Part shown: positions 3,796 through 51,868 of the stretch, one piece after another
How positions within the stretch are numbered: position 1 is the first letter of the stretch
How the letters are laid out: every line of letters begins with the position of its first letter
Virus record (IMG/VR): IMGVR_UViG_3300026522_000001
Location: 54,806-118,805 of that record
Length of the DNA stretch: 64,000 nucleotides
Source of the DNA: a virus
Strand: one strand, 5' to 3'
Notes under the pieces: generated by a model
What the model saw: only the letters and a program-made list of their open reading frames with translations
Database searches by the model: none
Told to the model about the DNA's origin: nothing
Position numbers and translations under genes: made by a program

Positions 3796-4120
3796 CACCT
3801 TTTCTGAAAAATTTTGACGAAAATTGAAAAATATATTCTGACCTCGTAGAAGCCGTTCTGAGAGTATTTTTCCCTCTATGAGTATAAATATACCTAAAAA
3901 TGCTTGGGAGCCCCTTAGTGGGCATCCTTCGAAACGACACAGGGTTTTATATTTATATTCTTTTCTCCAACCTGCACAAAAATAAAAATATTGGCCAAAA
4001 AATGAATTTTATATATATAGTGAAATTTTTCACAAGCTATACACTATTTTTTTAGGAGAGGGAGACAGCTAAAGGTAGTTCCCCTCATGGTATACATTTT
4101 ACACATTTGTCCATTTCGTC

Positions 4121-4305
4121 TTATATTATATATTATTATATTATATATACGAACGTAGTGAGTATATTTAATATATAATATATAATATAATATATATAAA
4201 AAATAATATAATAAATATATATATATAAATAATAAAATATTATATATGCTATATATATTATATTATATATACTCACTACGTTCGTATATATAATATAATA
4301 TATAT
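4121..4305. repeat. large inverted repeat flanking a pure A/T spacer
   Basis: Perfect 25-bp arms atatatacgaacgtagtgagtatat (4143-4167) and atatactcactacgttcgtatatat (4267-4291), extended by imperfect TA-rich pairing. The ~100-bp spacer contains only A/T. Confidence 0.8.
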
Positions 4306-4635
4306 AGGGCAAAATAAGCACCTGTCTTTTAGAGAAAGACAAATTATAAAGACTACTTTTTAGCTAAAAATTAGACTAAAGTCCTATTTACTATTTAGAC
4401 AAAATACTTTATAATATATAAAATAATAAAAATAAATAAAAAATAATAATATTTTATCTAAACAGAGCATATAATATTTAGATAAAAATAAATATAAAAT
4501 AATCTTAAATAATAAATTTAATATTAATTTTTATAAATAAAATATAATAATAAATTCTAAATAATTATTATATGTTTAGATTAACATAAATATAAGAATT
4601 TAATAAAAGTTTAATAAAATAAATTAAAATTTCTA

Positions 4636-4664
4636 TTGACAGCTATATATACGTATGATATAAT
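4636..4664 (+). promoter_or_regulatory. consensus promoter of the plus-strand gene block
   Basis: TTGACA gctatatatacgtatga TATAAT (17-nt spacer), about 65 nt before the 4731 ATG. Confidence 0.65.
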
Positions 4665-4730
4665 ATATGTATAGAGAAAAAGGAAATAAGGATTTTAGAG
4701 ATAATAATAAAAAGAAGTGAAAGGAAAAAT

Positions 4731-5255
4731 ATGATTCAAAAACACATAAATATAAAAAATTTACAAGGAACAGTTTCTTTGAATAAAGATATTCTTGTAG
4801 ATTTAGCAGAATTAGTAAGAATTTCACCTATTTCATCAAGACTATTATTCTTTATTATGGGTTATGCAGATGATAATAATGAAATTATTACAAATGTAAA
4901 GACTTTATCTAAATATTTAGGAAAAAATAGAGGATTAATAGAATATGCAATTAAAAATCTAGTTAAAAATGGATATATTACTATGTCATGTGTAGATATA
5001 GATAAATCTATTGATATTATTGGTAAAGAGCATGATATGGAACTCTATTTAGCTTCAAATAAACGTATTTGGAAAGTTATAGGAAATAAATATATTGGAA
5101 CTTTTAAGATTAAGGGAAAATATATTAAACTTAAAGTTAATGAGAATATTATTAAGTGTTCAAATAATAGAACAGGAAATATTATTCTTAATATAAAAGA
5201 TAATTTATATTATGATACAAGAATTGAAGATAATGATTTAAAGTGGGAGTTATAA
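4731..5255 (+). CDS. hypothetical protein, possible winged-helix DNA-binding protein
   Basis: ORF track. First gene after the promoter. The segment SKYLGKNRGLIEYAIKNLVKNGYI looks wHTH-like. Confidence 0.55.
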   Translation: MIQKHINIKNLQGTVSLNKDILVDLAELVRISPISSRLLFFIMGYADDNNEIITNVKTLSKYLGKNRGLIEYAIKNLVKNGYITMSCVDIDKSIDIIGKEHDMELYLASNKRIWKVIGNKYIGTFKIKGKYIKLKVNENIIKCSNNRTGNIILNIKDNLYYDTRIEDNDLKWEL

Positions 5256-5258
5256 TAT

Positions 5259-5423
5259 ATGCAGTCTACAAGAATTATTTTTAATATAAATACTAGACTA
5301 AAAGAAATGTTTGAAGATATTTGTAAAGAAAAAGGACTTACAAAAACTAAAGTTATTACAATGCTAATTAAAAAATATGTTAATGATAATAATAAAATTG
5401 AAAGAGAGGAAATTAAGGTTTGA
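5259..5423 (+). CDS. ribbon-helix-helix (CopG/Arc-like) small protein
   Basis: 54-aa ORF below the track cutoff: MQSTRIIFNINTRLKEMFEDICKEKGLTKTKVITMLIKKYV. It has a beta-alpha-alpha pattern and overlaps the next start by 4 nt. Confidence 0.5.
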   Translation: MQSTRIIFNINTRLKEMFEDICKEKGLTKTKVITMLIKKYVNDNNKIEREEIKV

Positions 5424-6217
5424 TAGAAAAAGAAAAATTACTATCAGATAAACTAAATACACATACATTCTCTTTTAGAACAACTCAAGATAAAATGTTT
5501 TTAGTAGTTTTATCTGATATACACATGGGAGCTTGTAATAGAGAATATCTTAGAGAAATTATCTCTTTTATTCTTAGTATTAAAAACTGTTATGTTATCT
5601 TAGGTGGAGATGCTACAAATAGTACAACTACTACTTCTAAAGGAAATGTTTTAGAAGAACAATTATCAGGTGATAAACAGATTTATGCTATTGTAGAAGA
5701 TTTAAAGCCATTAGTAGAAAACAATAGATTAATTGCTATTGGTGAAACAGGAAATCATGGTAATAGAATTTATGATAATTCTTATATAAGCATCAATAAG
5801 ATGATTGCTGTTTTGCTAGGTGTTCCTAAACTATATAAGGGAAATGCTCTTTTTGGATTTATCAATGTAAATAATATTTGTTATACAATATCAGTAATTC
5901 ATAAAAACAGAAAAGCAAAAAATTATTATGAATATGCTAGATGTGATATTCTTTATAAAGAACATTGGCATGAACTTAGATATGAACAAAAACTTGTTTA
6001 TGAATGGAATAAATATAATAAGTCACTAAGTGTTATTCCAACATTTGAAATTTATAATGGTTCTTTTTTGAATTTTCCTGAATATAGCTTGAAAGCTAAT
6101 TATAGACCACAGTTTATTGGAACATACTTTACTCTTTTAGACGGTAAAAAGAGATATATTCAACCATTTATAGATAAAGATTTATATTACATTATCAATA
6201 ATGGGTTTAAGGCTTAA
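5420..6217 (+). CDS. calcineurin-like metallophosphoesterase
   Basis: Motifs LSDIHMG (DxH), ILGGDATN (GD) and GNHGNR (GNH). Confidence 0.65.
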   Translation: MIEKEKLLSDKLNTHTFSFRTTQDKMFLVVLSDIHMGACNREYLREIISFILSIKNCYVILGGDATNSTTTTSKGNVLEEQLSGDKQIYAIVEDLKPLVENNRLIAIGETGNHGNRIYDNSYISINKMIAVLLGVPKLYKGNALFGFINVNNICYTISVIHKNRKAKNYYEYARCDILYKEHWHELRYEQKLVYEWNKYNKSLSVIPTFEIYNGSFLNFPEYSLKANYRPQFIGTYFTLLDGKKRYIQPFIDKDLYYIINNGFKA

Positions 6218-7704: not shown

Positions 7705-7875
7705 ATGACATATACTAAATTAAAAAAAAATACTATTGATTCAGTCCTTGCAAATAATGCAATAACTGATAAATCTAGCAAAATTAGTCAATATATTAAG
7801 TTAATGGAAGATTTTAGTAATAAATATGAAATTTACTTTTTAACTGTTATGGATAGTGATGGTGATACACATTGA
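7705..7875 (+). CDS. hypothetical small protein
   Basis: 56-aa ORF filling the gap between neighbours, with a 4-nt overlap onto the next start. Confidence 0.35.
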   Translation: MTYTKLKKNTIDSVLANNAITDKSSKISQYIKLMEDFSNKYEIYFLTVMDSDGDTH

Positions 7876-8423
7876 GTACTGATAGTAGAGCTTTTTTTGA
7901 GCGAGAACTAAAGATTTTGGAGGATGAATCAGAAAAAGATGATAAGGCTATTTTTGATAAAACAGGCAAATATCCTTCTCCTTCTGCTTTGTCCGTCCAA
8001 AAGAAAGTTACAAATGCTATCTTAGAATTACATGATGTATTTGCTAAACAACATCATGATAATTTTAGTGCTAGTTATGTAATGGATTTATTTTATAAAC
8101 TTGTTCATTTTACACCTCTTTCGCCGCTTACTGGTAAAGATGAAGAATGGGAACCTGTAGATGGTATGGATAATACAGAATATAATACTAGATTTACTGG
8201 TATTAGTCGTACTAATAAAGATAATAGTACTGCTATTTGGAATGATGGTATTCTATTTTGTGAACCAAATAATAATAATTGGTTTGGGGCTAAAGAATCA
8301 AGAGTAAACGTATCATTTCCTTTTTCTGATTTTGCGCGAAAGCTATATGTGTTGAAATATAAATGTGAAGATAAACCTATTGCAGACCAGCTTAAAGATG
8401 GAGATTATGAGGTTGTGAATTAA
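7872..8423 (+). CDS. hypothetical protein
   Basis: ORF track (TTG start), co-directional packing. Confidence 0.55.
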   Translation: MSTDSRAFFERELKILEDESEKDDKAIFDKTGKYPSPSALSVQKKVTNAILELHDVFAKQHHDNFSASYVMDLFYKLVHFTPLSPLTGKDEEWEPVDGMDNTEYNTRFTGISRTNKDNSTAIWNDGILFCEPNNNNWFGAKESRVNVSFPFSDFARKLYVLKYKCEDKPIADQLKDGDYEVVN

Positions 8424-13823: not shown

Positions 13824-14708
13824 TTATCCTCTTTTTCTTATTAAAATTCTGGCGTATTTAGATTTACCATTGATAGCAACACGACCACCGACTAAAAATT
13901 CTTTTGGTACAGTGTATCTGTCAAGACCAACTATTTCAAATTGTTCTGGATTATATTTATCAAGAAATGTAATCGGCACACCCATTACACCATTATAATC
14001 AATAGGTATATCAGCAACGTGTCCTACTTCAATACCATCATAACCATCATATTTAGGGTATTCTTCTGTCGTATAATGTTTCCATAAAATCAGCTTTTCA
14101 TGCCGCTTTGCAACATCCAAATTTGTGAACCAACCAACATTGCCAAACTTCTTAATACTACCACCAGGCTGTAAAAACTCTTTTACATTCGTATAGCCAA
14201 GCCATACTTTGTTATCCTTTAGTAACGGAAAGAACTCTTTGTATGTGATTGCGTTTTTATTCCCGATAATCAGAAACTTCTTCTCATGCTCCATCAGAAC
14301 AGCCACATACTCACGAAACAGGCTGAAAGGCGGGTTCGTTACAACAATATCTGCCTCGTCCAAAATGTCAAGACATTCCTGATTACGGAAGTCACCATTA
14401 CCCTCTAACGTGGTCTTTACACCGACCTCAATATCATTGTCATTGCCACCTGTGTATTCCATCTTATAGGTAGGTTGAGTTTTATCATAATGAGTGGAAA
14501 TTAGCTTCTTGAGACCAAGAGCTGAGAAGTTCAGAAGGAAATATTTCCAAAATGCTGACAAAGTGGGGTCATCACAATTACAGAGTATGGTCTTATCCTT
14601 AAAATGCTGCTTATAATGCATCAGCTCCTTTGATACATCTGTGAGCTGAGTATAGAACTCATCATTCTTCGCATCTTTTGCTTTATGAAGATTTGCATTT
14701 GTTGACAT
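13824..14708 (-). CDS. N6-adenine DNA methyltransferase (EcoRI-methylase-like family)
   Basis: DEFYTQ near the N-terminus, CNCDDP, and the catalytic VTNPPFSLFREY (NPPF). Confidence 0.7.
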   Translation of the reverse strand: MSTNANLHKAKDAKNDEFYTQLTDVSKELMHYKQHFKDKTILCNCDDPTLSAFWKYFLLNFSALGLKKLISTHYDKTQPTYKMEYTGGNDNDIEVGVKTTLEGNGDFRNQECLDILDEADIVVTNPPFSLFREYVAVLMEHEKKFLIIGNKNAITYKEFFPLLKDNKVWLGYTNVKEFLQPGGSIKKFGNVGWFTNLDVAKRHEKLILWKHYTTEEYPKYDGYDGIEVGHVADIPIDYNGVMGVPITFLDKYNPEQFEIVGLDRYTVPKEFLVGGRVAINGKSKYARILIRKRG

Positions 14709-15414: not shown

Positions 15415-15681
15415 TTACTCACAGTAAACTTTTTTGTAATGCTCTTGTAACTCCCTGAAATATTCGAGAGTTTCTTTCACGGAATCGGCATAAGATTCCG
15501 ATTCAGTGGTATTTTCTGCCATGCCAGTGCCAAGCGTCTGCTCTGCCCAAATATGGAATACTTTTTTATACGGATTCCATGCATACGCGATGTTTCCTCT
15601 CCAAAAATGGGACGGTCTATCCCATGCATCATAGGCACAGCCAGCGCTAAAATGTATTGGACGAAACTTATGTTCATTCAT
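15415..15681 (-). CDS. hypothetical protein in GC-rich island
   Basis: ORF track. Trp/aromatic-rich. 4-nt overlap with the upstream gene. Confidence 0.6.
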   Translation of the reverse strand: MNEHKFRPIHFSAGCAYDAWDRPSHFWRGNIAYAWNPYKKVFHIWAEQTLGTGMAENTTESESYADSVKETLEYFRELQEHYKKVYCE

Positions 15682-16154
15682 TCTTTCTTCTCTCCCTTCT
15701 GGGCTTTGACGGCCTTGCTAGCGGCCTTGCTAGTGGCCTTCTTGACTGTTGTCTTGCTAGTGACTTTCGCCGCCTGCACGACAGGCTTATTAGATGGCGC
15801 GCTAGGGGCTTTTGCGGGCTTGTCCTCCGCTGTCTTGTCACGCCTATGGGACTTATACGGCGTGACTTCTTCCCACGCCTGCCCTACAGACTTGAAGAAG
15901 TTCGTACTCTTGAGAAGTTCGTCAAGCGCCTGCGCGAATGACATGCCATTCGCCGTGCCGTAGCGACGAATGACGGTGCTTGCCCGCCCGCTAATTCTCA
16001 CAGGCACGCTTTCACCTGTCCAGCTTTTTGCTTTTGCTTTGAGAACGGCCGCCTTCTTAGCCTCCTCTTTTGCGTTCTCTTTGCAGGCCGGGCAGATGAC
16101 TTCTCTACCCGTCGCAACGAACTCGTGACCGCACTTAACACAATACTTTTTCAT
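15678..16154 (-). CDS. zinc-ribbon protein with Lys/Ala-rich histone-H1-like tail
   Basis: CVKCGHEF..CPAC at the N-terminus. C-terminus is KPAKAPSAPSNKPVVQAAKVTSKTTVKKATSKAASKAVKAQKGEKKE. Local GC is far above the surroundings. RBS AAAGGAG upstream. Confidence 0.65.
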   Translation of the reverse strand: MKKYCVKCGHEFVATGREVICPACKENAKEEAKKAAVLKAKAKSWTGESVPVRISGRASTVIRRYGTANGMSFAQALDELLKSTNFFKSVGQAWEEVTPYKSHRRDKTAEDKPAKAPSAPSNKPVVQAAKVTSKTTVKKATSKAASKAVKAQKGEKKE

Positions 16155-16299
16155 GATAGAACTCCTTTCTGCCGTCTCTTGACGGCAACACCAATTAATT
16201 TTGTCTTGTTCCCTTGGAACAATTATATATTACTACGCCGCCACAAAAATTGCAATTATAAAAGCATTAAAAATAAAATTAGAGAAATCGCTGGTGTAG

Positions 16300-17640
16300 G
16301 CCTGTAGGCAAAATATCTTTTTCCTTCTATATATAGGAAGGAAAATGTACTGTATATACACAAGCAGGAAATATACACACTTTCTTCTATTATATAGAAA
16401 GAAAAAGCTAGCACGCTTGACTATATACTGCATATCAGGCAGGTATGTTATTATATGCTATATATATATACGCCTATATATCCTTATATATAATATTATC
16501 TATGTTTCACGTGAAACATCTATATAGCGCCCTATAATTGTATCTATAATTGTATATGATTTTGGTTTGAAATTTTTTTTGAGATAAGATTTTTTCGTTG
16601 TTGCTTTCTATATAGCTATAATTATACTATGTTGTTTATGCCGATTTTTGCCCTTTTTCACTGTTAAAATCTTGTGATAATCTTGCTAAAATCTTTATGT
16701 TTTTAGGCTATATTTTATGCTATGTTTGCTATAATTGTGTTCTCTATTTAGCTATATAGATGTATCTATAATTGTGTTTATATACTTATCCACATCTTAT
16801 CCACTTTATACACATCTATAATTGTCTATAATTGTCTGTCTGCGAATTTCAGACGATTTACCACTATCTTTTGCCATATTGTATATATATATAGCTATAA
16901 TCACATATAATTTTTCTAAAACGATTTACCACATCTTTTTGCCAATCTATATATATAAAATCTAAAAAACGATTTGCCACTATCTTTTGCCAATCTATAT
17001 ATATATAGCTATATTACATTTCTTTTTTCTATTGATAATGGTAAAACTATTTTACCATTTATATTCTTTTCTATATAGTGTATCTTTTCCTATATAGTTT
17101 TACCTCTATATAGTATATTCTTTATTACTCTTATTCTCTATATTACTATAATTGTATAATATCCTTTTCTTTTTTTGTTTACTGCCGGAAGGTGAAATGA
17201 TTTATTCTTTATGTTGTTACTACTCTTATTCTATATAGTATACTCTTTTTCTTTTTCTCTTTTGTTTACTGCCGAATAATCTATGATATATTCTCTATAT
17301 AGCTATATATGTTATAATTGTTATACATTCTTTTCTTTTTTCTTTTTTCTTTCTGCCGCGCTGAAAGTTGATATAATTGTAGATATACTGTTTATATACT
17401 GTTGATACACTGTTGATATAATTGTGTTATATTTTATACACATATCTATGTTATAATTCTTGTTATTTATTATGTGATAAATTATAACATAAATTATCGT
17501 ATTCTTATGTTACACCTTATAGTATAATTGTTATTATAATCATTGTTATATTAAGTATTTTTATTGATTTTTCATATGGATAATATATAATTGATTCTAT
17601 CTATATATTACAGACGTTTTTCCCATATATATTGTATAAA
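16300..17640. repeat. repeat-dense non-coding field (palindromic CTATATAG boxes, TATAATTGT boxes, three ~45-nt direct repeats)
   Basis: Exact CTATATAG at 16519, 16608, 16752, 17071, 17090, 17106, 17231 and 17295. CTATAATTGT at 16532, 16544, 16729, 16766, 16816, 16826 and 17146, plus variants. acgatttaccac.atctttt.gcca occurs three times between 16853 and 17005. There is no credible ORF. Confidence 0.8.
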
Positions 17641-17668
17641 AAAAATAGCTCCATTGATGGAGCTATAA
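17636..17668 (-). terminator. intrinsic terminator
   Basis: atagctccat-tgat-ggagctat followed on the minus strand by TTTTTTTT. Confidence 0.6.
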
Positions 17669-17681
17669 AACATATTATCTT

Positions 17682-17879
17682 TTATTCTGCTTTTGCCGCA
17701 AAATCACCGCAACATACAGTTTTTGCAGTAGCAGAATATCTCACTAGGGAATAATCATATTCCCATGTGTTGAAATTGTTTTTTGCATACTGATAGTATG
17801 CATTAACAACCGCCTGTTCTGGTGGAACAGTATAGATATATGCATTCCTTGTTCCGAGCTGATACACAATAGTTTTCAT
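17682..17879 (-). CDS. hypothetical small protein
   Basis: ORF track. RBS AAAGGAGAG upstream. Confidence 0.55.
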   Translation of the reverse strand: MKTIVYQLGTRNAYIYTVPPEQAVVNAYYQYAKNNFNTWEYDYSLVRYSATAKTVCCGDFAAKAE

Positions 17880-17960
17880 GATAATCTCTCCTTTAGTTCA
17901 GTTTGTTCTCTAACTCTCTATATTGTTTGAGAGTTGAGATTCTTTTTCTAACTGCTAATC

Positions 17961-18907: not shown

Positions 18908-19454
18908 TTCATTCCACTCCTCCTTTTCTTTTGGCCTTCCTTTCGGCTTATGTCAAGTATACCACATTCTCGCCGTGTCTGTACAGTTAAAATTTTATTA
19001 AAACATTCTTAACAGCTAAACGATTTCTTGTTGCTATGTATATATAGAAGAAAAGTTATAAAAATAATGCTAAAATATGTGTTCGCGCTTTATTCTACAA
19101 GGCTTTACATGCTTTTCACTATACTATGTTTAGCCAGTCTTTTTATATCTGTTAGCTACAATACATATATTCAAGGTATGTATTATATTTCTTATCTATC
19201 TTATATTTCATAATTATCATATATGTATTATCTATCTTATATGTATTGTATGATATATGTATGTGTATATGTGTATACATATGTGCATACATGCACAGGC
19301 TAAATAAATCTTAATATCTCAATGATTCTTTATTGCCTGCCCTATAATTGTATTTGTTTTTGAAAAACATTTTGGTTAAAAATAGTTAAGCACCTATCAA
19401 TATCTTATCACATTCTATAATTGTATTTGATTTCAAAAAACATTTTAGACAAAA

Positions 19455-22415: not shown

Positions 22416-22619
22416 TCAAATTCCTTTTGATGTAAGATATAATATATAGAAGTCATACAATACATTATTTGTACATCTATTTATACCACAACATACTTTA
22501 TTTATTTCTTTTAGGTTGTTGTAGTATTTTATGTCTTTTGTTGCTATGAAATTATTTAGATTTTCTTGTAATTTTTCTTTGTAAAATTCTTCCAAGATAT
22601 TTTCACCACCATTATACAC
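22416..22619 (-). CDS. hypothetical small protein
   Basis: ORF track. Overlaps the upstream gene by 8 nt. Confidence 0.5.
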   Translation of the reverse strand: MYNGGENILEEFYKEKLQENLNNFIATKDIKYYNNLKEINKVCCGINRCTNNVLYDFYILYLTSKGI

Positions 22620-22944
22620 CTAAAAATACTGCATTATCTTTTACTGTATACTCTTTAGGAACATCACCATTACATCTAAGATTATGTGTAGTGATTACTT
22701 CTCCAGTATCTAGCATTTTAATACGAAATTTCATCCCTCCATATCCTAATCCGTATGTGTTTATTAAATCTTTTGGTTCCTTACCTATATGATAGCAAAC
22801 GCCTTTAATAATTACTGCACTATCATCTAATGCTAATTGCCAAAATCTTTTAGAAAAGCATTTTTCGTCACCACATAGCCCTGAAAATTCACTGCCTTTG
22901 TAGTAATCTTTCTTTACTTCTTTTCCACAGATAGGACATTTCAT
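22612..22944 (-). CDS. hypothetical protein with N-terminal CxxC
   Basis: ORF track. MKCPICGKEV..CGDEKC. Confidence 0.55.
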   Translation of the reverse strand: MKCPICGKEVKKDYYKGSEFSGLCGDEKCFSKRFWQLALDDSAVIIKGVCYHIGKEPKDLINTYGLGYGGMKFRIKMLDTGEVITTHNLRCNGDVPKEYTVKDNAVFLGV

Positions 22945-22969
22945 AATATCACGCTCCTATAATTGTATG

Positions 22970-49891: not shown

Positions 49892-51175
49892 TTAGAAAAT
49901 GCTCTTGAAGTTTTCTTTATTTTCTTCTGTTTCCTGTTTTGTTTCCTCATCGTTATTTATATCTTCGATATTTTGGATATATGTATATGTATTTATATCA
50001 GGATTCCAGTTATAAATACACTTTGTTTCTTTTCCGCTCTTGCCATAACGATTCTTTGTAATGGTCATTTCAAGAATAGGATTTTTATTTACAATACTAA
50101 TAAGTCTTGTGCAACTTGCACCAATCTTATCACTTCCTGTAATGTTTTCGGTTCCAATATAATCTTTATCATTTTCTACTGCTTTTCTGTTTGTTTGGAT
50201 AACAACAACTACTGGAATACTTAATTCACGAGAAAGTGAAAGTAAATCCTGTGCAATATGCCCTAACTGATTAGGAACACTATCAGATTTCTTTGCTCTC
50301 TCATCAATAAGATAATCAAAGCCATCAATAAAAAGAATATCAGCTGTTGTTGCCTTACAGAAAGTTCTGATTTTACTGATTGTACATTCATTGTCAAAAT
50401 CTTCGAGGGTACTAATACAAAATCTATTTTTGCTCTGTTTTAGTTTTGTTAAAAAATCTTTATACCCATTAACCTTACCACAATACATAAGGTTATTAAG
50501 GCTGAATCCTCCCATAGTGCTATCCACACGTTCTGCAAACTGATTTACCGTCATTTCTGGAGAAATCAATGCTACATTAAATCCTTGTTCAAATACACTT
50601 GATGCTGATTTTGTAAGCACAAAAGATTTACCTTGTCCTGTTCTTGCTGTAAAAAGAACAAGGTCATCTCGCCTTTCATATCCAATAAATCCATGTGCAT
50701 CCAATTCATCAAATCCACTTGGCATAAAATATTTTGAGAAATTATTCTGTCTTTCTAAATATTCATTATACCTAGTGTCTACATCATGTGCGATGTCTAC
50801 AAAGTGCATAGAGTATTTAGGCTTTAACTTATCAATATTTGCTAAAAGAAACTTTGCACCTTCATTTGCATCTTTCTCAAATAGTTCTGTGCTTTTATTG
50901 ATTACATAACAAGCACTTCTAAATAATGACTGCTCTCTTAAATCATCAACAATAGACTGTGAATCCTGCTGAACACTAAAAAATTCAAACTCACCAAACT
51001 TCCCTGCTATTGTTGTCTTATCAGGAACATCATTATATTTGTTATGAAATTCTTTAATAAACTCAAATACATTTCTACAAGTTGTAAAGTCATTACTTGT
51101 AATATTATTATTCTCAACTAAAGAATAATCTTTAGTTTCAAGCAATTTATTGATAAACTGTTCTTCACAAAGCAT
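49892..51175 (-). CDS. replicative DNA helicase (DnaB family)
   Basis: Walker A ARTGQGKSFVL, Walker B ILFIDGFDYL, QTNR arginine-finger region, and N-terminal DnaB-like domain. Confidence 0.8.
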   Translation of the reverse strand: MLCEEQFINKLLETKDYSLVENNNITSNDFTTCRNVFEFIKEFHNKYNDVPDKTTIAGKFGEFEFFSVQQDSQSIVDDLREQSLFRSACYVINKSTELFEKDANEGAKFLLANIDKLKPKYSMHFVDIAHDVDTRYNEYLERQNNFSKYFMPSGFDELDAHGFIGYERRDDLVLFTARTGQGKSFVLTKSASSVFEQGFNVALISPEMTVNQFAERVDSTMGGFSLNNLMYCGKVNGYKDFLTKLKQSKNRFCISTLEDFDNECTISKIRTFCKATTADILFIDGFDYLIDERAKKSDSVPNQLGHIAQDLLSLSRELSIPVVVVIQTNRKAVENDKDYIGTENITGSDKIGASCTRLISIVNKNPILEMTITKNRYGKSGKETKCIYNWNPDINTYTYIQNIEDINNDEETKQETEENKENFKSIF

Positions 51176-51178
51176 ATC

Positions 51179-51868
51179 TTATTCCCCTTTGCGCTTATAT
51201 GTATTTGTGTAGTTTCTTCTGCTATTACCAACTAACTTTATTACAATATCACTACTGATTCTATCTGCTATTCTTACACCAACAGCTTTAGCTAATTCTG
51301 ATAGACTTAAATTGCTTGTATAGATTGTTGCATAACCATTACTTGTTCTACAATCTATTACATTAGTCAAAACACTAATATCATAGTTACTATTCATTAC
51401 TGCACCAATATCGTCGATAATTACTAAGCTACTATTCATAGCTTTATCTAGCAGTTCTTTTCTGTTGTCATTGCTGAAATCTTTTTGCTGTGCTAAAAAA
51501 GTTGGTACAAACAAAAAGAAACATTTTTTATTGTTAAAGCCATTCCCACTAGCAATCATAGCCATATAGGTTAATGCCATCTTACAAGCCCAAGATGTTT
51601 TTGCACATCCTGTATTTCCATAAAGATACAACTGTCTACCTTCTTCTGTAAAAGCTAAAATATCTTTCTTAATGTCAGACAGTGTATAAAAAGACTCAAG
51701 GTCATCTTCTTCGGGGAATAATTCTTTTGGCTTTTTATACTTTTGTGGAATATTACTTTCTTCCACCAAATAGGAAAATTCTGTAATGATGTTACAACCA
51801 CCATCACAAGGTTTATGCTTTTGCCTAGCGCATACACCATTGAATGGACAATTCTTATAGGTATACAT
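51179..51868 (-). CDS. DnaC/IstB-like AAA+ helicase loader
   Basis: LYLYGNTGCAKTSWA (Walker A variant) and LVIIDDIGA (Walker B). N-terminal Cys cluster. Confidence 0.6.
   Translation of the reverse strand: MYTYKNCPFNGVCARQKHKPCDGGCNIITEFSYLVEESNIPQKYKKPKELFPEEDDLESFYTLSDIKKDILAFTEEGRQLYLYGNTGCAKTSWACKMALTYMAMIASGNGFNNKKCFFLFVPTFLAQQKDFSNDNRKELLDKAMNSSLVIIDDIGAVMNSNYDISVLTNVIDCRTSNGYATIYTSNLSLSELAKAVGVRIADRISSDIVIKLVGNSRRNYTNTYKRKGE

Follow-up and report, generated by a model that had tools for sequence, protein, structure and literature searches.

What is the function of a repeat-dense stretch of about 1.4 kb without genes in the genome of an uncultured gut phage, given that hardly any phage of this kind has a known origin or control region? 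The stretch in question (16160–17645, termed the field below) belongs to a phage from pig gut represented by a 118,805-bp IMG/VR record (IMGVR_UViG_3300026522_000001; G+C content ~30 %), the last 64 kb of which constitute the analyzed window (64,000 nucleotides); all positions given refer to this window. An original prediction, made from the letters of the window, had described an iteron-like array of boxes and direct repeats and proposed a replication origin, a partition or packaging site, or a titration array for a regulator. Judged from its sequence and from its counterparts in relatives, the field appears to be a conserved cis-acting docking site on which several DNA-binding proteins converge, host DnaA among them in the present lineage. 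A tentative reading is an iteron-type replication origin joined to a control region bound by a regulator.

Repeat content, borders and conservation of the field

All repeat elements named in the original prediction were recovered. At least eight exact copies of CTATATAG had been claimed, and eight are located at 16520–17302 (the window has 12 in total, the 118.8-kb genome 15); their alleged usual context, TTCTATATAGTATA, applies to some of the copies only. The count of at least 12 TATAATTGT boxes was likewise reproduced (11 on the plus strand at 16533–17531, one on the minus strand at 16219), as were a tandem pair of such boxes (16816–35), three ~45-nt direct repeats (starting at 16853, 16921 and 16969) and three longer units with the end (T)TTACTGCCG (17160–17358). 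The supposed 14-bp palindrome exists, but is in fact 18 bp long (ATGTTTCACGTGAAACAT, 16502–16519). A DnaA-box cluster (16786–16814) and three phased 11-mers (16662–16695) had escaped notice. Chance or low complexity as source of the repeats is ruled out by dinucleotide-preserving shuffles of the field itself (n = 2000), which contained on average 0.15 copies of CTATATAG (observed: 8) and 0.14 of TATAATTGT (observed: 11); not one of the 2000 shuffles reached either count.

The description as gene-free proved correct, since no open reading frame (ORF) of ≥70 amino acids occurs across 16155–17960. This absence, together with indels between relatives that are not multiples of three, led to rejection of a hidden gene. 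A tRNA or known RNA family was rejected as well, with no tRNA and no credible Rfam match found in the field. Few regions of the genome form a less stable duplex than the field.

The minus strand carries nearly all genes of the phage. The field had been placed at the start of the long minus-strand gene array, but actually lies at its downstream (3') end, behind an intrinsic terminator (17666–17645, minus strand) that closes the array and forms the right border. The terminator hairpin is preserved in a partial relative (L068, reached through the clamp loader) via a compensatory T>C/A>G change. The left border is the sigma-A promoter (16255–16227) of a gene encoding a 158-aa zinc-ribbon protein (15678–16154, minus strand), which adjoins the field in every relative recovered. 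This promoter (feature 16219–16255, minus strand) has the form TTGCAA-17-TAATAT with a GC-rich spacer and reads TTGACA-17-TATTAT in relatives.

Contigs with homologues of the zinc-ribbon protein yielded six further field-bearing lineages, i.e., L196 (115-kb scaffold), L197–L201, L202, L204–L206, L207 and L208. The comparison comprised seven lineages: the phage itself (WIN), L196, L197, L202, L204, L207 and L208. Recovery via the zinc-ribbon gene implies the presence of this gene by construction, but not that of a field upstream of it. All six lineages possess a >1-kb ORF-free gap between the last small gene of the array and the zinc-ribbon gene; in L207, 2.5 kb separate the two, also with two small called genes. 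Across the seven lineages, the expected conservation was borne out for the TATAATTGT boxes, the iterons and the palindrome, and failed for exact CTATATAG (1–5 copies in relatives). The one-strand excess of TATAG nevertheless persists (19–29 on the gene strand, 6–15 on the other strand).

Other routes to relatives were unproductive. No similar DNA was found for the field among 50,697 phage records, two conserved-DNA patterns of the field had no match in IMG/VR, and the nearby small and flanking proteins likewise led to no relatives there. GenBank phages, compared with nearby small proteins and with DNA of the field, yielded no match either. The tandem-box pattern matched only unrelated viral contigs and gave three unrelated matches in 185,579 species genomes. 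The tandem DnaA-box pattern matched at least 119 viral contigs, none of them related to the phage beyond a shared DUF932 protein. In the literature, the box sequence was met in primers and unrelated sequences only.

A box family shared with early-gene junctions

On the gene strand, the box represents a 10-bp site, ACAATTATAG, with ACAATTATA(G) as its conserved read. Each field contains 8–13 boxes in a single orientation (7/7 lineages), and 8 of the 11 boxes of WIN match intact boxes in all four full-length lineages. While most boxes are spaced by 37–320 bp, pairs or triplets occur at 10 or 12 bp. An offset of 10 bp is observed for the boxes at 16835/16825 in WIN and for three consecutive boxes in L204; the WIN tandem (ACAATTATAG-ACAATTATAG, 16816–16835, minus strand) is kept in 7/7 lineages. 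An offset of 12 bp is found at 16553/16541 in WIN and for three boxes in L196. The former pair (16532–16553, minus strand) directly precedes the palindrome ATGTTTCACGTGAAACAT and is found in WIN, L202, L204 and L208, lying inside an indel missing from L196 and L197. Two boxes (16766–75 and 16729–38, minus strand) are located between the DnaA boxes and a near-invariant block termed segment E; the position of this pair (16729–16775) is kept in WIN, L196, L197, L202 and L208, whereas L204 lacks it. A single reversed box (16219–27), kept in relatives, overlaps the −10 element and the start site of the zinc-ribbon promoter.

Beyond the field, TATAATTGT occurs on the plus strand 10 times at 19.3–30.8 kb and once elsewhere, and on the minus strand four times elsewhere. 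The outside boxes (19342–51, 19415–24, 21033–42, 21097–106, 22394–403, 22957–66, 26837–45 and 30828–37; minus strand) belong to the early small-gene region (19.3–30.8 kb), share one orientation, are situated at orthologous gene junctions in L196, L202 and L204, and frequently display a long form, AAATGTT-N14-ACAATTATAG.

Since number and position of the boxes are kept, and since they have one orientation, often occur head-to-tail at one helical turn and recur at a few early-gene junctions, they are most simply read as targets of a phage protein that binds cooperatively and sequence-specifically. On this simplest reading, the protein would act at several promoters, with about a dozen sites in the field. 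A role at the RNA level is unlikely, because two copies are located just behind the terminator and the reversed copy overlaps the zinc-ribbon promoter.

The region at 18960–19450 is a miniature of the field. It consists of a terminator, followed by two long-form boxes 73 nt apart, ~300 nt of CATATACA-rich non-coding DNA, TTCTTCTATATATA and a sigma-A promoter with GC-rich spacer; this layout is kept in L196, L202 and L204. Directly behind the box at 22957–66, a gene (22612–22944, minus strand) encodes another CxxC zinc-finger protein (starting MKCPICGKEV), the Shine-Dalgarno sequence of which is overlapped by the box in 3/3 lineages examined.

Iteron-origin grammar of the central region

The central ~400 bp of the field (16640–17010) have the grammar of an iteron origin, i.e., iterons, TATA-rich meltable DNA, phased 11-mers and lineage-dependent DnaA boxes. 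The three ~45-nt iterons (16853–17007, minus strand) are each composed of TATATATA and (A)TTGGCAAAAGATnnTGGYAAATCGT, thus containing two TGG(C/T)AAA half-sites 13 bp apart. This paired half-site pattern has a single stray copy in the genome besides the field, and every lineage retains 2 or 3 iteron copies. At 17039–17057, two iteron half-sites in inverted orientation form the palindrome TGGTAAAA-cta-TTTTACCA, which is present in this genome only.

The DnaA-box cluster (16786–16814, plus strand) comprises the sole perfect DnaA box in 118.8 kb (TTATCCACA, 16786) and two one-mismatch boxes (TTATCCACT, 16797; TTATACACA, 16806), arranged directly at 9–11 bp start-to-start. A rough Poisson estimate puts the expected number of such triples in the genome at ~10^-3. 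Compared with the three boxes of WIN, the same slot holds four (3 perfect and 1 near-copy) in L196–L200.

Segment E (16647–16696) harbours the three phased 11-mers (16662–16695), which read TGnTAAAATCT / TGTGATAATCT on the plus strand (AAGATTWT on the minus strand) and form a tandem found once in the genome. Identity of this segment amounts to 92–96 % among WIN, L196, L197 and L202; the L208 copy has diverged, and L204 is devoid of it. The most conserved block of the field, segment A (17400–17640, minus strand), contains 4–5 boxes (17586 variant, 17523–31, 17417–25 and 17372–80) as well as an imperfect 24-bp inverted repeat, and is 88–98 % identical between lineages over 17446–17595. That blocks A and E are 88–98 % identical, compared with 75–91 % for the neighbouring coding DNA, supports an origin.

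Segment A also carries an extended −10 element without −35, TGTTATAAT (17481–17489, minus strand), which is kept in WIN, L196, L197 and L202, and the exact sequence is likewise present in the fields of L204, L207 and L208. The same 9-mer marks consensus promoters of the phage at 29260, 31930 and 3767. TGTTATAAT may represent a promoter reading leftward through the field.

Candidate binding proteins

The zinc-ribbon protein encoded next to the field is, on position, the best candidate for the box binder. It is composed of a zinc ribbon, a long helix, a possible beta-alpha-alpha module similar to ribbon-helix-helix (RHH) proteins and a Lys/Ala/Ser/Pro-rich tail. The first 107 residues are strongly conserved and include an invariant GESVPVRIS, while the tail is hypervariable in length and sequence; apart from the zinc ribbon, no Pfam family was assigned. 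In the AlphaFold2 (AF2) model, the zinc ribbon and the long helix are followed by coil-helix-helix, the order of which corresponds, as modelled, to the topology of an RHH monomer. The top Foldseek matches are mostly RHH proteins (Arc, CopG, ParG, NikA and antitoxins), all with E > 0.7. More than 1000 homologues (about 60–79 % identity) were found, almost all of them on short metagenome contigs.

The two binders suggested originally fare less well. The RemA-like protein is disfavoured, because the 20-kb syntenic loci of L196 and L202 lack it while retaining 11–13 boxes. The RHH protein encoded at 5259 (54 aa) is indeed conserved (93 %), but has no box at its own promoter region; the same applies to a 174-aa HTH_36 protein (87 %).

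Function of the field: origin, operator or terminal element

Read as an origin fused to a control region, the field could operate as follows. An iteron-binding phage protein would open the AT-rich DNA, with host DnaA helping in this sublineage, and the DnaI-like loader of the phage (gene at 51179–51868) would then place the DnaB-like helicase (gene at 49892–51175) on the opened DNA. A box-binding protein, probably the zinc-ribbon neighbour, would coat the flanks of the origin, use the reversed box at 16219–27 to shut down the promoter of its own gene and link origin activity to expression of the boxed early genes. A purine-rich transcript from TGTTATAAT could cross the field; one may speculate that it primes or activates replication. 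The phage itself encodes PolA, the DnaB-like helicase, the DnaI/DnaC-like loader, a primase, a clamp loader and a RecA-like protein. Lineage-specific occurrence of DnaA boxes fits an origin, because DnaA can be dispensable yet stimulatory in iteron plasmids, as in R1 (PMC4980987).

Iteron theta origins with DnaA boxes (RK2 oriV, P1 oriR, pSC101; PMC4980987) and lambda ori have one-orientation initiator repeats in common with the field. Like it, they combine an AT-rich flank bearing short phased repeats with helper DnaA boxes and adjacent replication and control genes. Differing from both, the present phage has no recognised gene for a Rep/O-type initiator, its core is surrounded by a second, far commoner repeat family (ACAATTATAG) that is reused at gene junctions, DnaA boxes occur in some lineages only, and the phage looks lytic and has a Firmicute as host. 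The latter is probable rather than certain and is assigned because the characterised polymerases most similar to that of the phage come from phages of Clostridium and Streptococcus. In lactococcal and streptococcal phages, non-coding origins (c2, Sfi21, phi31 'per') measure a few hundred bp and contain fewer motif families. They share with the field an AT-rich, repeat-dense, non-coding nature, a position at the edge of the early/replication module and a possible through-transcript; sequence similarity to them was, however, not found among the 50,697 phage records.

Several observations weigh against an origin at this site. The least stable DNA of the genome is located elsewhere, at 4.1–4.6 kb (17.6 % G+C at 4001–5000), where a 56-nt inverted repeat (91 % complementary, arms 4134–4189 and 4245–4300) is also found; this region is a candidate for a competing origin or a cruciform. 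GC and AT skews at four-fold sites display no usable step, either at the field or elsewhere along the genome. Among the phage proteins, no Rep, O or DnaA-type initiator was recognised, nor was a DnaA C-terminal domain (domain IV) found in the phage, and the HTH_36 protein matches the PHROG family 'replication initiation protein' weakly (E 2.5e-4). Four of the seven lineages (L202, L204, L207, L208) have no DnaA box, the slot being filled by unrelated sequence. The RHH-like fold of the candidate zinc-ribbon binder rests on the AF2 model and the Foldseek matches at E > 0.7. The miniature layout at 18.96–19.45 kb shows that part of the field architecture represents promoter control. Finally, the iss region of T5, with repeats and DnaA boxes, was argued to be no origin, T5 origins mapping to the genome centre (10.1101/866236).

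The junction at 3941–4730 (core 4100–4310), which includes this least stable DNA, separates divergently oriented tRNA/structural genes from a plus-strand early module.

Of the functions originally listed, an origin and a regulator array stay viable, while partition and packaging have become weak. A purely regulatory array, i.e., a sink or operator for the box binder that times the boxed early genes and autoregulates the zinc-ribbon gene in place of an origin, is considered rather unlikely. Such an array would account for the same box at conserved early-gene junctions, the reversed box overlapping the zinc-ribbon promoter, the constant adjacency of field and zinc-ribbon gene, the head-to-tail tandem boxes and the smaller copy of the layout at 18.96–19.45 kb (boxes, CATATACA-rich DNA, TTCTTCTATATATA, promoter with GC-rich spacer). 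It leaves unexplained, however, the iterons, phased 11-mers and DnaA boxes, none of which occur at gene junctions; moreover, at least 11 sites over 1.4 kb are much for one operator, and the putative binder has no more than a possible RHH-like fold. Very unlikely is the proposal that the boxes are themselves phage promoters or −10-like elements served by a phage activator, with the field producing a non-coding RNA or priming replication by transcription. The plus-strand reading of the box does contain a perfect TATAAT and the minus-strand reading TACAAT, with a conserved AAATGTT 12–14 nt upstream at gene junctions, and both the conserved extended −10 element at 17481–89 and the polypurine runs downstream on the same strand would agree with promoters. 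Yet no −35 element exists at workable spacing on either strand (tested for 16–18 bp), tandem copies in steps of 10–12 bp could not each act as a promoter, a conserved sigma-A promoter already serves the gene block that follows the 19.4-kb boxes, sigma region 2 was not found in the phage, and segment A folds no better than shuffled sequence (z −1.24, not significant). Promoter-like sites at 13–32 kb (113) are not in excess over shuffles (114.7).

Short-repeat arrays are used by RHH proteins such as omega of pSM19035 and ParR of plasmid R1 (on parC), whose short sites are arranged head-to-tail at about one helical turn upstream of the small binder gene. In the field, too, the array is upstream of a gene for a small candidate DNA-binding protein, with one site overlapping the promoter, and this resemblance of direct-repeat arrays beside a small, possibly RHH-type gene to parC-parR would speak for a centromere-like partition site. 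In contrast to these systems, most boxes are dispersed here, no partition NTPase was found (searched as ParA-type ATPase, AAA_31/ParA; controls worked), and the neighbour protein has a zinc ribbon and a basic low-complexity tail, its RHH fold being only suggested. Since, in addition, searches of the phage gave no integrase, those of the 185,579 species genomes gave no prophage or plasmid copies, and the large terminase gene is ~16 kb away (window −1515 to −169), a partition or packaging (pac/cos) site is highly improbable. Somewhat less so, although still quite doubtful, is a DNA-entry or terminal element resembling Repeat Region 3 of T5, its injection stop signal (iss), the field then forming the inward boundary of a block injected first, or of a long terminal repeat, that would carry the plus-strand module at 4.7–13.5 kb. 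Repeat Region 3 (1.2 kb) is untranslated, contains nested repeats, palindromes and DnaA boxes, is conserved above nearby ORFs and lies beside the pre-early genes (10.1101/866236). The field shares these traits (both are gene-free over ~1.2–1.4 kb, with direct and inverted repeats), being ~3 kb from a 9-kb oppositely oriented early takeover module that encodes Tad3, PhoH and a metallophosphoesterase; the genome size of 119 kb is also similar to that of T5. In T5, however, eight DnaA boxes form pairs 3 bp apart in 131-bp inverted repeats of all relatives (10.1101/866236), while here 2–4 direct boxes occur in one sublineage and none in four lineages. Boxes common to the field and to gene junctions are not a T5 feature, homology to T5 was not seen, and the phage polymerase has its nearest counterparts in Clostridium and Streptococcus phages. 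The place expected of such an element is the inner end of a long terminal repeat bearing the pre-early genes. In the record of the present phage, the ends overlap by exactly 127 bp. A length of 127 is a common largest k-mer of assemblers, and the repeat is therefore most simply read as assembly overlap.

Going beyond an origin with control region, the field and its linked gene might constitute a new phage chromosome-organising module. In this proposal, the zinc-ribbon/RHH-like protein with its histone-H1-like tail would nucleate on the ACAATTATAG boxes and spread or bridge to boxed early-gene junctions, thereby switching the early region off and firing the embedded origin, with one sublineage adding host DnaA boxes. 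This is regarded as unlikely.

Further features of the field and its surroundings

The 18-bp perfect palindrome ATGTTTCACGTGAAACAT is unique in the genome, in which CACGTG occurs twice, and identical in all lineages but L207; it is likely an operator for a dimeric protein. Two further palindromes of the form TTCYTTCTATATATAGRAAGGAA are located at 16321–43 and 16381–404, and relatives retain the first as TTCTTCTATATATAGAAGAA. Of the eight CTATATAG copies, five (17071, 17090, 17106, 17231, 17295) are situated in a TATA-rich, poorly conserved segment (17071–17302), the other three at 16520, 16608 and 16752. The longer units at 17160–17358 (minus strand) form a direct-repeat family, each consisting of CGGCAG, a polypurine run and then a ACAATTATA box on the minus strand; there are 3 units in WIN and 4 in L068.

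The same phage was also assembled independently (ERZ27252042; the parts compared are 100 % identical), as two contigs (87.6 kb and 31.0 kb) that split at 16008–16161 and ~47190, with one break inside the 5' end of the zinc-ribbon gene; strain variation may be the cause of these breaks.

The plus-strand module at 4.7–13.5 kb, with genes at 7872–8423 (+) and 5420–6217 (+), encodes Tad3-family (anti-Thoeris), PhoH and SbcD-like metallophosphoesterase proteins and looks like a takeover and anti-defence block. A gene for an EcoRI-type adenine methyltransferase (13824–14708, minus strand) represents variable cargo, missing from the syntenic loci of L196 and L202; L196 harbours another N6/N4 methyltransferase elsewhere in the module. 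An IS605-type TnpB insertion adjoins the clamp-loader gene on opposite sides in L196 (2053–3165) and L202 (1821–2942), and in L202 it is found directly upstream of the boxed junction.

Implications

Iteron origins, fields of DnaA boxes in phages and repeat-array operators are already known, and the field, an uncommonly elaborate example, adds no new principle to them. New are the combination of elements, its conservation across an abundant group of uncultured phages and the linked zinc-ribbon family. The group looks abundant because this family has more than 1000 metagenome variants, those traced being from pig gut. The field supplies separable parts, namely three or four families of sites, a neighbouring candidate binder and DnaA boxes varying by lineage, through which the start and timing of replication in such phages could be studied. 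Such parts could work as cis elements for vectors or for interfering with phage.

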